Position numbers and translations under genes: made by a program. A DNA stretch of 64,000 nucleotides, from positions 1-64,000 of IMG/VR virus record IMGVR_UViG_3300028048_000056; one strand, 5' to 3'. Source of the stretch: a virus. Lineage: Duplodnaviria; Caudoviricetes. This document shows, in pieces, positions 13,441-23,299 of this stretch. A model generated the notes under the pieces. The model was not told where the DNA came from. It did not search any database and saw only the letters and a program-made list of their open reading frames with translations. Each line of letters starts with the position of its first letter. Positions within the stretch are counted from its first letter, which is position 1.

Positions 13441-13587
13441 CAACTTGAAGTGTATGCAAATTGGTCAGAAGCAACTGGTTCTGACATAGACCAGAAAGAG
13501 CGAAGTACCACGTGTCTGATTTGGTAATTGAGCCTAATATCGGCGTGGGAAAAGCTACGTGGGTTCGATTCCCACCACTTCAGGTTG
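13441..13587 (+). ncRNA. tRNA-like RNA with large insertion and extended acceptor stem, no CCA
   Basis: CAACTTGAAGTG/CACTTCAGGTTG stem; D-like arm; CTGGT..ACCAG arm with 10-nt loop; GTGGG-TTCGATT-CCCAC. Confidence 0.65.
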
Positions 13588-13907
13588 ATATAATCTGAGC
13601 GCCGCCCTGGCAGACGAAAGAAGAAAGGTCCTGTGTGAAATGCGGACTTTGGGGCAGCAAGGGTACGATATAGCTGGGAAACTATCCGTTGCTCAGACTC
13701 ACGAAGGCGAGCACAGCCTCCGGTGTAATTCCGGCGTCCTAGAACGGGTGGTGCACACCTTAAGCAGGGTACAGGGTACGATAAACCCTATCTAACATCG
13801 AGACGAGGTAATGACTTGTCTCGATGACCTGTTTATAACTTCGGAACCTGTATCGGTTTTGTTGTATACTATAGATACAGTAAAACGTACACAGGAGGTA
13901 ATGCTCA

Positions 13908-14798
13908 ATGCTTAGACTTAATGCTCAGACAATACAGAAGAACGGTATGGGTGTTGCGTGGATGCTCGCGCATAACGGTAAAGAAATTCCAGTTCAGGTT
14001 CATGTCTACGGTGCTATAGGTGAACTTGACGAGAACGCAGCCGCTGCTATCTGGATGCTCAAATACGCACCGTATGATAAGCTGGTTCCGTTCCTTAAGC
14101 AGTTTGTAGCATATACCGCTGTAAATCAGGTACCTTATACCGACAATCGTGACCAGTTCAACGCGGATTTAGCTAACGAACTGTCAGCTGGTGGTAATCT
14201 AGGTAAGCAGGTAGGTTGGTCTAAGGAACAGACTGCTGATTACCTTCTAGGTCTGGTAAAGGATATGTCTATCGACGAAATCTATGACCTGGGTGATACT
14301 GTAACCGAGCACACAGGTGACTTTGTTGCTAAGGACTTGAATGAGACATTCATTCGTGTCCGTATGGGTGGTGAGTATGATACAGATAAGTTGACTGGAG
14401 ATACATTCTTCCGCATTGGTTCTACCTATAAAAATTGGACAAACGCAATCTATATGTTCGTTCACGAGCACAAGAATGTTACCAAGATTTATGTAGAGCG
14501 TGATGCTGAGTCTGACGGTAAGACAAGTCTAACTGAGCGTGATGTCATGATTAACGGTATGTCTAGAGAAGAGTTCTTATCAGCTGAGAAGCTTCCGTTC
14601 TTAGGTTCTAGACATAACGACGGTATTATGGCTATAATCTACGGTGTTATCAGTAATGGTAATTACTCTGACTTAGCACAGGTTAAAGCGAACTCTTCAA
14701 GAGTTGCTAGACTTTGTGATAAGCTCCGTATGGAGAATATATCATGTAATTACAAGACAATCAACGCACCTTGGGCAAGTAAGCCTAAGAATCGCTGA
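13908..14798 (+). CDS. Hypothetical protein
   Basis: Own promoter (13837) and AGGAGG RBS; 296 aa. Confidence 0.8.
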   Translation: MLRLNAQTIQKNGMGVAWMLAHNGKEIPVQVHVYGAIGELDENAAAAIWMLKYAPYDKLVPFLKQFVAYTAVNQVPYTDNRDQFNADLANELSAGGNLGKQVGWSKEQTADYLLGLVKDMSIDEIYDLGDTVTEHTGDFVAKDLNETFIRVRMGGEYDTDKLTGDTFFRIGSTYKNWTNAIYMFVHEHKNVTKIYVERDAESDGKTSLTERDVMINGMSREEFLSAEKLPFLGSRHNDGIMAIIYGVISNGNYSDLAQVKANSSRVARLCDKLRMENISCNYKTINAPWASKPKNR

Positions 14799-15030
14799 TT
14801 ATATTACGCAGCCTGAGCGAGTAATATAGCGAGACGGAGTCACAACCAAGCACAGTTCAAGGTAATAACTTTGGATGAGTGGGTTGCTCGCTAAAGAAAG
14901 GTAAAGGCTCTTCCTTGTTCCGTCAAGGAAATAATGATTCTAGAGTTGAAGCAATAGTTTCAGCAACGAATAGGGAAGTCAACAGCAGAGTTGACATACT
15001 GATACTTCTGGTGGGTTGAAGTACAGACAA

Positions 15031-15107
15031 CGGGGTGTAGCTCAGTTTGGCAGAGTGCTTGGCTTGGGACCAAGAGGTCGCAGGTTCGAATCCTGTCGCC
15101 CCGACCA
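15031..15107 (+). tRNA. tRNA-Pro(UGG)
   Basis: Canonical cloverleaf, CTTGG-CT TGG GA-CCAAG, CCA. Confidence 0.95.
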
Positions 15108-15229
15108 TTGCGGATGAAAGAATGCAGGAGAGATGCAGCTTAACGAACTGCTGGGTGCGTAGCACTCATAGCTTAAGAGTAGAGCCTCCTACGATTCCGC
15201 TATTAGTTCAGAGTAGAGGAGGGTTAATC

Positions 15230-15595
15230 TTGATTGACAGATATGAACCTAAGGATAGAAATTATCACTACATTAAGGTAACCTTTGCTCATGCTGACTA
15301 CTTCGGTTGTGTTGTAATCAAGGTAGGTGGCAACTGTAAGGGTGCTTCTGTTCTTTCCGAGGGTTTGGAATTCTGGGAGAACTGCGACGTAGAAGATGTT
15401 CAAAATCTTGTATCTAAGAACTGTGAGTTAGAGCTCTATGAAGACCAGGCAGATGAATTCTGGTTTAGACTTACCTTAATAAATTCTGACAACGGTGACC
15501 AGATGCAGTTCGATGCGCTAGACTATGAAGAGCTTACCGACATGATTGTCGCAGTTGAATTTGTCGACGTAGAACCCGAGGAAGACTCGGAGTAG
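15230..15595 (+). CDS. Acidic hypothetical protein
   Basis: GAGGAGG RBS before TTG; the longer ORF call overlaps tRNA-Pro. Confidence 0.65.
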   Translation: MIDRYEPKDRNYHYIKVTFAHADYFGCVVIKVGGNCKGASVLSEGLEFWENCDVEDVQNLVSKNCELELYEDQADEFWFRLTLINSDNGDQMQFDALDYEELTDMIVAVEFVDVEPEEDSE

Positions 15596-15617
15596 AATAT
15601 ATCAGGAGGTTATATCC

Positions 15618-16082
15618 ATGAAGAAATTTGTTGGTACAAAGGTTATTGAAGCTGAGCCGATGACTCGCGGTGACTACGCTAAGCGTAGCGGCAGAAACAG
15701 TATCCTTACCGAAAAGGGTGAGAGTGCCAGTGATGCTGGTTATCTCGTTCGCTATGAGGACGGCTATGAGTCGTGGAGCCCTGCAGAGGCATTCGAAAAG
15801 GCATACAGAGACTTTGCCAATCTGTCATTCGGTCACGCTATCGAACTGATGAAGCGAGGCTATAAGCTTGCACGTGCAGGTTGGAATGGCAAGAAGCAGT
15901 ATATCCAGCTTGCTACCTGCATCAGTTACAAGACCGCTGACGGTGAGCTTGTCAACGCTGAGCATGACGCTATCGGTAATCAGGCAATCGCTTTCGTCGG
16001 CACATCAGGAGTGCAGATGGGCTGGCTTGCAAGTCAGGCTGACCTGCTCGCAGAAGACTGGTGCGTCTTTGACTTAATCTGA
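15618..16082 (+). CDS. DUF2829/Tad2-like domain protein
   Basis: FGHAIELMKRGYKLARAGWNGK..WLASQADLLAEDW with N-terminal GYLVRYEDGYESWSP domain. Confidence 0.8.
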   Translation: MKKFVGTKVIEAEPMTRGDYAKRSGRNSILTEKGESASDAGYLVRYEDGYESWSPAEAFEKAYRDFANLSFGHAIELMKRGYKLARAGWNGKKQYIQLATCISYKTADGELVNAEHDAIGNQAIAFVGTSGVQMGWLASQADLLAEDWCVFDLI

Positions 16083-16231
16083 TATCTTCACCTTCGGCTA
16101 TTAGAGCCCAGTTTTGTCATTGGGAGTGCGAATTGCTCACACCTATTCGTGCTCCCATTCTCCTATTTACAACTTCGTTTTCACGGTTGTAATGTGTTAT
16201 AATAATGGTACAATAAGACACAAGATAATAT

Positions 16232-21889: not shown

Positions 21890-22124
21890 AAGGATATGCT
21901 CACCTATCAACTACGCAAATCTAGTAATATTCACGAAGGGTGCTGAACTTCCCGCAACCGCAGTCAATGACAAAGGCGAGAACGTAATCGTAACGACAGA
22001 ACCTAGCGACATGGGTATGTGCTATCGACTTGATACTTACCAGAACAATGGCTGGGTTCGCATCAATCGATATTACAAGGACGGTGCCGGGGATGAAGAG
22101 TATGATATGGGAGGTGAAAGATAA
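21873..22124 (+). CDS. Hypothetical protein
   Basis: AAGGAGG RBS. Confidence 0.65.
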   Translation: MAAEPRRICSPINYANLVIFTKGAELPATAVNDKGENVIVTTEPSDMGMCYRLDTYQNNGWVRINRYYKDGAGDEEYDMGGER

Positions 22125-22597
22125 TGAAGGTTAATCCTGAGATTTCGGTATTCACCACGTTTCCCAACAATGGCTATCTTGCATTAGTTTTTCAGGATAA
22201 CGGTGTAGCATTTACAGCAAATTGTAAAAAGAAGGATGCGTACGAAGGACTCCTAGAGGTCTGTGCTAACTTCCTGCTGGACATTATCGACGATGTAAGA
22301 CCTGATGTTCAAGAGCTCAAGCAGAGTCCGGAAATGTCTGACGAAGACTTGGAAAAGATAGACCGATATGCCACAGCTGTTGCAGCTGCTCACTCTGCGT
22401 TTTGCCAGGCTTTAGAGTCTCGTTTGTCTATAGGAAGCGTGACAAAGCAGCTTGAAGCGTCTGGTCTTCCTCATGTCTTTGCTAAGATGCTGGCAACCGG
22501 TATGGAAGCTTTTCCGGGAAAGTTCGAGAAAGCATCTAACGACGACTGTGATGAGGAAGATGAAGATTCATCCGATGACAACGACAATCTGGATTGA
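22124..22597 (+). CDS. Hypothetical protein, acidic tail
   Basis: GGAGGTGA RBS, TAATG coupling. Confidence 0.7.
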   Translation: MKVNPEISVFTTFPNNGYLALVFQDNGVAFTANCKKKDAYEGLLEVCANFLLDIIDDVRPDVQELKQSPEMSDEDLEKIDRYATAVAAAHSAFCQALESRLSIGSVTKQLEASGLPHVFAKMLATGMEAFPGKFEKASNDDCDEEDEDSSDDNDNLD

Positions 22598-22688
22598 GAA
22601 TCCAGCATCTTCGGTTCAAAACCGAGTGCTATGTTATAATACATATACAATAAACATAAATCAAATTCTCATGTGTAGGAGGTAACAG

Positions 22689-22940
22689 ATGAAAGTCACG
22701 GTTGTTGCATTTAATACTGCCGAGGCTCATAAGGCAAAAGAGGGGCTGGTAAAACTCAAGAAAGGCGTAAGTGAGTTCAGAAGGGACCTTAGAGATAACA
22801 GAGTGGACCAGGACACGCTTGAGTCTTTCGTGAAAGGGCTTCGTGTAATCGCAGACTACTTTGAAGGGTTCATGAAAGATGAGCCTGAAGAAGTCAGACA
22901 GGATGTATCTGAGCCCATTATCGAGTCAGAAGACTACTAA
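22689..22940 (+). CDS. Hypothetical protein
   Basis: Promoter 22607 plus RBS. Confidence 0.7.
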   Translation: MKVTVVAFNTAEAHKAKEGLVKLKKGVSEFRRDLRDNRVDQDTLESFVKGLRVIADYFEGFMKDEPEEVRQDVSEPIIESEDY

Positions 22941-22989
22941 TCCAGAATCTTGCTGAGTTTATCTATCCCAGTCCTACTGGGATTCTGGC

Positions 22990-23064
22990 TGGGGCATAGC
23001 CAAGTGGTAAGGCAACAGCCTTTGACACTGTCATTCGTGGGTTCGAATCCCGCTGCCCCAACCA
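22990..23064 (+). tRNA. tRNA-Gln(UUG)
   Basis: TGGGGCA/TGCCCCA, ACAGC-CT TTG AC-ACTGT, GTTCGAATC, CCA. Confidence 0.9.
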
Positions 23065-23113
23065 ATGTGCTTGACACGCCTCTGTTCCATGCGTACCACG
23101 TCAAGCCTACAGT

Positions 23114-23210
23114 ATGCGTTACCTGGCCTGGTAGCATAGAGGTTAGTGCGCGGACGCCTAATAAGGGTCTAAGACGCGGGTTCGAGTCCCGCCTGGGTTG
23201 GGTAACGCAT
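23114..23210 (+). ncRNA. tRNA-like RNA with extended acceptor stem, aberrant anticodon arm, no CCA
   Basis: ATGCGTTACC/GGTAACGCAT closing stem; D arm GCAT..GTGC; GCGGG-TTCGAGT-CCCGC. Confidence 0.6.
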
Positions 23211-23220
23211 GCTTAAATAT

Positions 23221-23299
23221 TCTCGAGTCTAATGGTAGGTAGGCAGGCTGTGTCGCGATAGCTTGTCGGTGTGGAGTTCAATTCCCACCTCGAGAACCA
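23221..23299 (+). ncRNA. tRNA-like RNA with CCA, minimal D arm and 10-bp anticodon-position stem
   Basis: TCTCGAG/CTCGAGA-A-CCA; GGCAGGCTGT/ATAGCTTGTC; GTTCAATTC T loop. Confidence 0.65.

Follow-up and report, generated by a model that had tools for sequence, protein, structure and literature searches.

The window analysed here is the first 64 kb (64,000 nucleotides) of IMG/VR virus record IMGVR_UViG_3300028048_000056, a 162,085-bp record that is ~93% complete. It contains an island in which five canonical tRNA genes are interleaved with five tRNA-shaped RNA elements (E1 to E5), all of them on the + strand. The canonical genes encode tRNA-Leu(UAG) (13354-13438; Rfam tRNA 50.2 bits), tRNA-Pro(UGG) (15031-15107; 67 bits), tRNA-Leu(CAA) (16426-16510), tRNA-Leu(UAA) (17093-17179), and tRNA-Gln(UUG) (22990-23064), each of which is found by both ARAGORN and the Rfam tRNA model. 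The elements are E1 (13441-13587), E2 (16232-16336), E3 (16715-16818), E4 (23114-23210), and E5 (23221-23299). A preliminary description of this DNA had proposed that the five elements lie among five normal tRNAs, that they retain an acceptor helix and a T-arm stem, and that three end in ACCA while two lack CCA and have a longer acceptor helix. Our analysis agrees on each of these points. All five have a 7-bp acceptor and a 5-bp T stem (bulged in the window copy of E5); E2, E3, and E5 end in A-CCA, and E1 and E4 lack CCA and have acceptor helices extended to 12 and 18 consecutive pairs, respectively.

ARAGORN makes six tRNA calls in the window, and Infernal with Rfam gives the identical six at the gathering threshold. 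The sixth call, labelled 'Ile-AAT' and located at 23124-23201, is E4, which scores 39.1 bits against the Rfam tRNA family (RF00005; threshold 29 bits). E3 likewise scores above this threshold (36.1 bits), in a match that was found with permissive filters and aligned with a 6-nt loop and a long insertion. For E3 and E4 this differs from the undetermined or pseudogene calls that had been anticipated; E1, E2, and E5 give no tRNA match with Infernal even at E values up to 10. No Rfam family other than tRNA is matched by E1 to E5; ARAGORN reports no transfer-messenger RNA (tmRNA), and the Rfam tmRNA model matches just 18 nt of the E1 T arm, at 17.4 bits. A script that filters for tRNA shape (acceptor 7/7 paired and T stem 5/5 paired) recovers E1, E3, and E4 alongside the true tRNAs, and E5 passes the filter in relatives. 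A 7-bp acceptor stacked on a T stem of 5 bp whose loop has 7 nt is present in E1, E3, and E4, and also in E5 with one bulge in the window copy, whereas E2 has this geometry but a non-canonical loop. None of the five (0/5) has a normal anticodon arm, with a 5-bp stem, a 7-nt loop, U33, and a readable anticodon. Fold energies relative to dinucleotide shuffles correspond to z scores of -4.8 (E1), -2.1 (E2), -2.2 (E3), -3.6 (E4), and -3.3 (E5).

Three related phages (L001-L003) were found via a 296-residue protein encoded within the island at 13908-14798, and more distant relatives (L055/L056, L057, L058, L059, and L060) were reached via 48 database homologs of this protein. L011, which has a syntenic tRNA island, and L005/L012 were found by a pattern scan for E2. 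Pattern scans for E1, E3, and E5 returned four related phages and no others, and the 21 loci retrieved with the tail protein encoded at 8674-9753 contain none of the five elements. When 13200-17400 was compared by blastn with 50,697 phage records, the matches were limited to tRNAs and one protein-coding gene, and there is no close relative in this deposited phage collection.

E2 is 105 nt long and has an A-CCA end. Its 7-bp acceptor is followed by a CA linker, a D-like stem of 5 bp that carries a 9-nt loop, an H-type pseudoknot, and a T-like stem, also of 5 bp, capped by the loop GGUAGGA. The pseudoknot takes the place of the anticodon arm and is formed by helix A (16269-74/16290-95) and helix B (16279-86/16300-07). 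A covariance model built from five sequences (R1) matches the window, L001, L003, L011, L012/L005, L058, and L059 at 75-128 bits, and has no other credible match. In L059 and L012 nearly every helix is changed in sequence, and all five helices are retained. The alignment of seven sequences from four lineages, with the pseudoknot included, has 94.4% of cells paired and two-sided changes at 16 of 31 pairs, a count that is an underestimate because of register shifts in L012 and L059; none of 500 shuffles is as good (0/500), and slid controls give at most 3 compensated pairs. Invariant features are the 7-bp acceptor abutting a 5-bp stem with a 7-nt loop, the 2-nt CA linker, and the discriminator A, and these spacings support a tRNA-like shape. 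The T-like loop is conserved as GGYAGGA and is not a T loop.

The E2 copy in L005/L012 is located in siphovirus-like contigs that are unrelated to the window phage and lack tRNAs nearby, and its neighbouring genes (Gp157, Rad52-like, replication protein O, and Dam) are of the kind found in siphovirus early regions. A 20-mer from the E2 T arm, searched against metagenome contigs, identified one true copy (L044, near-identical to L001), the other matches being without the E2 fold. Two Edaphobacter matches to the 20-mer in bacterial genomes were taken, uninspected, as chance or coding look-alikes, and four further matches to a gapped E2 pattern in viral contigs were judged to be due to chance. 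L002 carries at 11107-11283 a deletion chimera: tRNA-Pro contributes its 5′ half, E2 contributes its 3′ three-quarters, and the junction lies in the D arm. The E2 acceptor is broken and two genes, DUF5406 and Tad2, are lost, suggesting recombination between D-arm-like sequences.

E5 is 79 nt long and has an A-CCA end. Its 7-bp acceptor is accompanied by a mini D hairpin and by a T arm that in the window copy has one bulged A; where the anticodon arm would be there is a 10-bp rod with the hexaloop GUCGCG (23252-23257), and a variable loop is absent. It is represented by three lineages, corresponding to the window, L001-L003, and L058, where it is placed differently, after tRNA-Pro. Of the 22 pairs, six are compensated (acceptor, 1; rod, 2; T stem, 3); the mini D hairpin is also compensated (A-U to U-A, as read from the alignment), and the hexaloop is invariant across the lineages as RUCGCG.

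E1 has the form of a class-II (Leu-like) tRNA. A 12-bp helix closes it, D and T arms are present, the latter canonical, and its anticodon stem of 5 bp bears a loop of 10 nt (UCUGACAUAG); the variable arm is branched and spans ~62 nt. The D arm is Leu-like, with a UGC/GCA stem and a 13-nt loop similar to those of the adjacent tRNA-Leu genes. This tRNA-like cloverleaf is masked in the minimum-energy fold, which forms a hairpin GUCAGAA/UUCUGAC; we rejected this hairpin in favour of the anticodon stem CUGGU/ACCAG, which covaries at two pairs, becoming UCGGU/ACCGA in L002 and L003. E1 is seen only in the four related phages of the pattern scan, and the alignment of four sequences from two lineages has 99.3% of cells paired and 7 of 34 pairs compensated, including the two in the anticodon stem. 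Both lineages lengthen the acceptor with a long outer helix that is different in each, and neither has a CCA. The 19-nt T arm is identical between E1 and the L001-L003 copies of E5.

E3 carries an A-CCA end and, at the anticodon position, a loop of 6 nt (UACGAC); its variable arm measures 31 nt and has the palindrome GUCACGUGAU at its tip (16771-16780). Members of the E3 family are found in the window, L002, L003, L011, and L058. Four helices (acceptor, D, variable, and T) are preserved among them, and compensation is seen at 9 of 24 pairs. The loop at the anticodon position is 6 nt in the window and L011 and 7 nt without U33 in L002, and the loop sequences are unrelated. The D arm of the L002 member is that of tRNA-Leu-UAA over 19 nt, indicating that the family is derived from tRNA-Leu. 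At the tip of the oversized variable arm there is always a 10-nt palindrome, the sequence of which varies (AUCACGUGAU, AUAGCGCUAU, AUGGCGCCAU; in the window copy the first A is a G). Judging from the sequences, these palindromic tips, with self-complementary central four bases in the three E3 variants, and that of E5 (UCGCGA) may mediate loop-loop dimerisation or be recognised by a dimeric binder.

The core of E4 (23125-23200) derives from tRNA-Ile; its acceptor is rich in G-U pairs and its anticodon arm is extended. This core is clamped by a perfect 10-bp outer helix such that the minimum-energy fold has 18 consecutive pairs, and E4 has no CCA. The anticodon arm can be drawn with an 11-nt loop (the Infernal alignment) or as an 8-bp rod with a tetraloop, and the window copy has A in the first anticodon position. 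A second copy in L001 is 93% identical and contains the Ile loop CUGAUAA, the arm being drawable with 7 nt in the loop and a 7-bp stem that includes a G.G mismatch; the Ile loop indicates descent from tRNA-Ile. The G-U-rich inner acceptor has a U-U mismatch in L001, and the outer 10-bp helix is perfect in both copies. A distant look-alike in L002 (9412-9516) shares the 3′ strand CUGGGU, and its outer helix, of 12 bp and likewise perfect, is a different one. Between tRNA-Gln and E4 there is a hairpin (23070-23106) with a sub-threshold match to the abiF RNA motif (26.3 versus 37 bits, E = 0.37).

A promoter-like module, AACTTCG with TAWAAT 15-24 nt downstream, is present in 29 copies in the window versus 0.07 expected by chance, and is on the + strand for all but one of the 29; the copies include those at 12202, 13235, 16171, 19827, and 21292. 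Two copies with the form AACTTCG, spacer, TATAAT stand on the + strand at the heads of RNA arrays, at 13235-13268 and at 16171-16203, the latter being kept in relatives. Terminator-like hairpins, also on the + strand and each with a 12-bp stem followed by a T-rich tail, are located at the ends of these arrays at 13796-13826 and 17391-17418. Promoter motifs on the 5′ side and terminator-like hairpins on the 3′ side thus define two RNA-only units, the first containing tRNA-Leu(UAG), E1, and a conserved 3′ part, and the second containing E2, tRNA-Leu(CAA), E3, and tRNA-Leu(UAA) with conserved spacers. The spacers 16617-16714, 16965-17086, and 13588-13907, which separate tRNAs and mimics, are 80-94% conserved in relatives (84% identity in L011 for 16965-17086); they look structured and may be further RNAs freed by tRNA processing.

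The RNA arrays are flanked by a Tad2-like gene (15618-16082), a NADAR gene (19894-20325), and a Tad3 gene (25403-26173). Downstream of the second RNA unit is a MazF/PemK-like gene (17573-18460) coding for a 295-residue protein with a toxin domain at residues 9-125 and an unexplained C-terminal half; its 3′ end is overlapped by a gene for a sigma-70 region 2 protein (18432-19028), and the pair is kept in relatives. Other neighbours of the arrays encode a DUF5406 protein, an AAA ATPase, ThyX, and an HD protein. Together with the Tad2-like, NADAR, Tad3, MazF-like, and sigma-factor genes these mark the region as a counter-defence and host-takeover island. Relatives additionally contain Acb2/Tad1-like genes (L055, L057). 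The conserved gene within the RNA island at 13908-14798 is in or beside the tRNA region in 7 of 7 related contigs with DNA fetched, and the 48 homologs of its product extend down to 46% identity. This protein has no Pfam or PHROG family, and a protein atlas search gave no match; its AlphaFold model is confident, with a pLDDT (predicted local distance difference test) of 85, and the top structural matches in PDB searches are weak (Foldseek E 0.31, VIA Z 4.7).

The structures of the five elements, their genomic setting, their conservation and covariation, and the lack of an anticodon arm with which to decode lead us to regard them, with somewhat better than even confidence, as selected, non-decoding small-RNA genes built on a tRNA chassis. 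Homologs preserve both the retained and the replaced helices through compensatory changes, and since pairing is preserved through sequence change, simple decay is ruled out for E1, E2, E3, and E5, in accordance with the preliminary description, in which random decay was thought not to account for the paired replacements. No element presents an anticodon at the normal distance from the elbow, and they are therefore not ordinary decoders. The acceptor/T half of a tRNA is read by RNase P, RNase Z, the CCA-adding enzyme, and several tRNA-binding proteins, EF-Tu included, and it is because this half is the part retained that we speak of a tRNA chassis.

We infer from the sequence how the elements might be transcribed, processed, stabilised, and directed to any target. 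Their origin would be in duplication of phage tRNA genes, with tRNA-Leu giving rise to E1 and E3 and tRNA-Ile to E4, and with E2 belonging to an independent tRNA-shaped family. The five elements are real, but the 'family of five' as which they had been grouped has at least three separate origins. They would be co-transcribed with the phage tRNAs from phage promoters, with the upper half most likely acting as a handle by which the RNA is excised, finished, and stabilised like a tRNA. The lower half would be a lineage-specific module (pseudoknot, rod with palindromic hexaloop, or giant variable arm) and the working part, which probably binds a protein or another RNA. E1 and E4, with their ends locked in 12- and 18-bp helices and no CCA, probably stay in a longer transcript or are freed in another way. 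The counter-defence neighbours make phage-host conflict the likeliest arena, in which an element could, for example, tie up a host factor by which the acceptor/T half of tRNAs is recognised.

Several points weigh against this reading. Any function suggested by the anti-defence setting would be guilt by association. Nor did a partner protein emerge: the protein encoded at 13908-14798 has no recognisable fold, and a search of the 162-kb record for a Ro60/Rsr gene (TROVE, PF05731) gave 0 matches at E <= 0.01, with a very distant look-alike still possible. The E2 CCA tail is present only in the window's clade, being replaced by AAAU in L012 and ACAA in L059, and mimicry of the tRNA 3′ end is thus not family-wide. 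The lineages are few (two for E1, three for E5, and four for E2), so that the counts of compensated pairs stem from a small number of independent events. The case for E4 is weaker than for the other four, its two near-identical copies and one look-alike amounting in effect to a single informative comparison. An anticodon stem common to the E3 family could not be aligned, and there the arm looks unconstrained rather than rebuilt; the proposal that the anticodon region was rebuilt in five ways is accordingly sound in that no element has a normal arm, but not for the E3 family, in which it is the variable arm that is conserved and not the anticodon arm.

The very mosaic nature of the island, with a set of elements that differs in each relative, could be taken to indicate that the elements are functionless tRNA pseudogenes decaying after duplication and recombination in a fast-changing tRNA island. 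The tRNA-Pro/E2 deletion chimera with its broken acceptor in L002, the G-U-rich E4 acceptor with a U-U mismatch in L001, and the unconserved anticodon arms of the E3 family would all fit this. Decay erodes pairing, yet 94-99% of cells are paired with many two-sided changes, the acceptor (7/7) and T stem (5/5) are still paired in divergent copies, and the new pseudoknot and rod helices covary, and we consider decay improbable. A role as processing punctuation, in which the elements recruit RNase P and RNase Z to free spacer RNAs or adjacent mRNAs and the replaced arms are functionless, is unlikely but to be taken seriously: the spacers 16617-16714, 16965-17086, and 13588-13907 are themselves conserved, the arrays form single promoter-to-terminator units, and tRNA-like handles that release RNAs are known in the TMERs (tRNA-miRNA-encoded RNAs) of murine gammaherpesvirus 68 and in MALAT1/mascRNA. 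However, the true tRNAs already provide cut sites every few hundred bases, a bare handle would have no need of conserved loops and covarying helices in the replaced half, the clamped ends of E1 and E4 should hinder RNase P, and E2 occurs alone in a siphovirus-like contig with neither tRNAs nor arrays nearby.

The location of the MazF-like gene (17573-18460) directly after the terminator of the second unit, a position kept in L001-L003 and L058, recalls the promoter, RNA, terminator, and toxin layout of type III toxin-antitoxin systems, and the elements might then be RNA antitoxins or regulators of this endoribonuclease. There are no relevant ToxI-like tandem repeats between 13000 and 23800, the gene lies away from the RNA array in L055 and one other relative, E1, E4, and E5 are located elsewhere, and E2 in L012 has no such neighbour, so that a partnership with the MazF-like protein seems very doubtful. 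We give slightly less credence still to the possibility that these are unusual working tRNAs, such as frameshift or recoding suppressors with anticodon loops of 6, 8, or 11 nt. Frameshift suppressors with enlarged anticodon loops do exist, E3 and E4 are above the Rfam tRNA threshold, and the loop of E4 in L001, CUGAUAA, is a textbook one for Ile; but loop size and sequence are unconserved in the E3 family, E2 lacks any anticodon arm, the rods of E5 and E4 place the loop 2-5 bp too far from the elbow for a codon, and E1 and E4 have no free CCA end. The table 11 open reading frame lists of the region show intact frames, although no search aimed at frameshifted or recoded genes was made. Perfect palindromes of 6-10 bp at the tips, which are TCGCGA in E5, ATCACGTGAT, ATAGCGCTAT, and ATGGCGCCAT in the E3 family, and GCATGC in the L002 look-alike of E4, might instead suggest a role at the level of DNA, as protein-binding sites, recombination sites, or replication signals. 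Of the explanations weighed here this is the one we find hardest to credit: the frequent G-U pairs (e.g. in the E4 acceptor and the E5 rod) pair only in + strand RNA, all of the elements are on the tRNA strand within tRNA transcription units, and a pseudoknot and T-arm geometry are meaningful for RNA only.

The species 1 and species 2 RNAs of phage T4 were sequenced in the 1970s, and the purpose of such RNAs has been open since. Encoded by rnaC and rnaD, they are the closest known system for the five elements, and their biological role is unknown (PMC3014915). T4 rnaC is a small RNA gene on the tRNA strand inside a phage tRNA cluster, as are the five elements here, and its 139-nt RNA folds with a canonical T arm beside a helix formed by its two ends, an unrelated structured interior, and no anticodon arm, a layout that is shared here. 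In contrast, the blastn search of 13200-17400 against the 50,697 phage records revealed no sequence similarity to rnaC or rnaD, the interiors here are a pseudoknot, a rod, and a giant variable arm, there are five elements per genome rather than two, and they lie among counter-defence genes. That the elements were undescribed is therefore correct insofar as no Rfam family except tRNA covers them, but T4 rnaC/rnaD provides a precedent that is 50 years old (PMC3014915), and a 2023 catalogue of structured RNAs in IMG/VR mentions tRNA-like candidates (PMC10690425). Non-decoding tRNA-like RNAs of phage tRNA clusters are thus already known in kind; what is new is the particular architectures, chiefly the pseudoknotted E2 family with its movement between phages that are unrelated, and the fact that they occur together in a single counter-defence island.

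Other known RNAs resemble the elements in part. E1 and E3 share with canonical class-II tRNA-Leu (RF00005) the acceptor, D arm, long variable arm, and T arm, and E3 also the discriminator A and CCA, but they lack a 7-nt anticodon loop with U33, their variable arms range from 31 to ~62 nt, and the ends of E1 (and E4) are clamped without CCA. The YrlA Y RNAs that act with Ro60/Rsr (RF02553) are likewise bacterial and phage non-coding mimics of the upper tRNA that are outside translation, but in these the module is circularly permuted, with its two ends located within the Ro-binding stem. A YrlA-like match at 15107-15206, which is right after tRNA-Pro and outside the five elements, was rejected as probably due to chance (31.8 versus 69 bits, z = -0.24, and no Ro60 gene). 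In the engineered tRNA scaffolds of Ponchon and Dardel (PMC3753655) the anticodon arm is exchanged for the RNA to be expressed, which is processed and stabilised by virtue of the tRNA body, and E2 and E5 have this layout; the scaffolds are man-made, whereas operation of the same principle in the natural elements would be a matter of interpretation. On that interpretation the elements would be a natural counterpart of the engineered scaffold.

Phage tRNAs are known to act against tRNA-cleaving defences, as for T5 tRNA-Lys and PARIS (PMC11464382) and for tRNA-Tyr and Retron-Eco7 (PMC11555353; see also PMC10264068). These are genes of large-phage tRNA clusters with a neighbourhood similar to that of the elements here, but they are decoding tRNAs that replace cleaved host tRNAs, and the elements cannot decode. 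The roles put forward in the preliminary description (nuclease decoys, modulators of synthetases, EF-Tu, Rel, or T-boxes, and processing handles) are conjectural, and a Firmicute host is a guess. The elements make poor candidates for decoys of anticodon nucleases (PrrC, RloC, PARIS), as it is the anticodon loop itself that they have lost; they would be better suited as ligands of factors that recognise the acceptor/T half. Cas12a3 is a defence nuclease that reads the acceptor, T arm, and CCA tail (PMC12851939), and the existence of a nuclease of this type makes a competitor for factors reading these parts possible. We therefore offer, quite tentatively, the more specific suggestion that the elements are modular mimics of the tRNA top half that act as competitive ligands, sponges, or false substrates of host immune factors reading the acceptor stem, T arm, and CCA tail, with the lower halves tuning stability, localisation, or a second partner. 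Candidate targets would include Cas12a3-like tail nucleases, acceptor-stem tRNases, and sensors of uncharged tRNA, and if this is true, non-coding RNA on a tRNA chassis would be a class of counter-defence effector. The broader reading of the elements as non-decoding RNAs on a tRNA chassis places several structurally distinct, covariation-supported RNAs side by side and adjoining counter-defence genes in one phage group, and provides concrete constructs with which to ask about tRNA-like processing, charging, and the blunting of tRNA-directed immunity.

The comparisons among relatives show the island to be a site of rapid tRNA-gene duplication and remodelling. Six genomes contain a 136-nt tRNA-shaped family that is not in the window, with a branched domain at the anticodon position, A-CCA ends, and 9 of 37 pairs compensated; its members are at 12122-12257 in L001, 11740-11875 in L002, 13790-13925 in L003, 12022-12155 in L011, 9678-9813 in L055, and 12859-12994 in L058. 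L059 contains a 95-nt tRNA-shaped element with a 9-bp rod that is also missing from the window, and there are odd ARAGORN calls in L011. In L001, a 76-nt tRNA at 11698-11773 has the class-I shape with a short variable loop and the anticodon CAA, and is labelled Leu by ARAGORN, which is unusual for a tRNA without a long variable arm.

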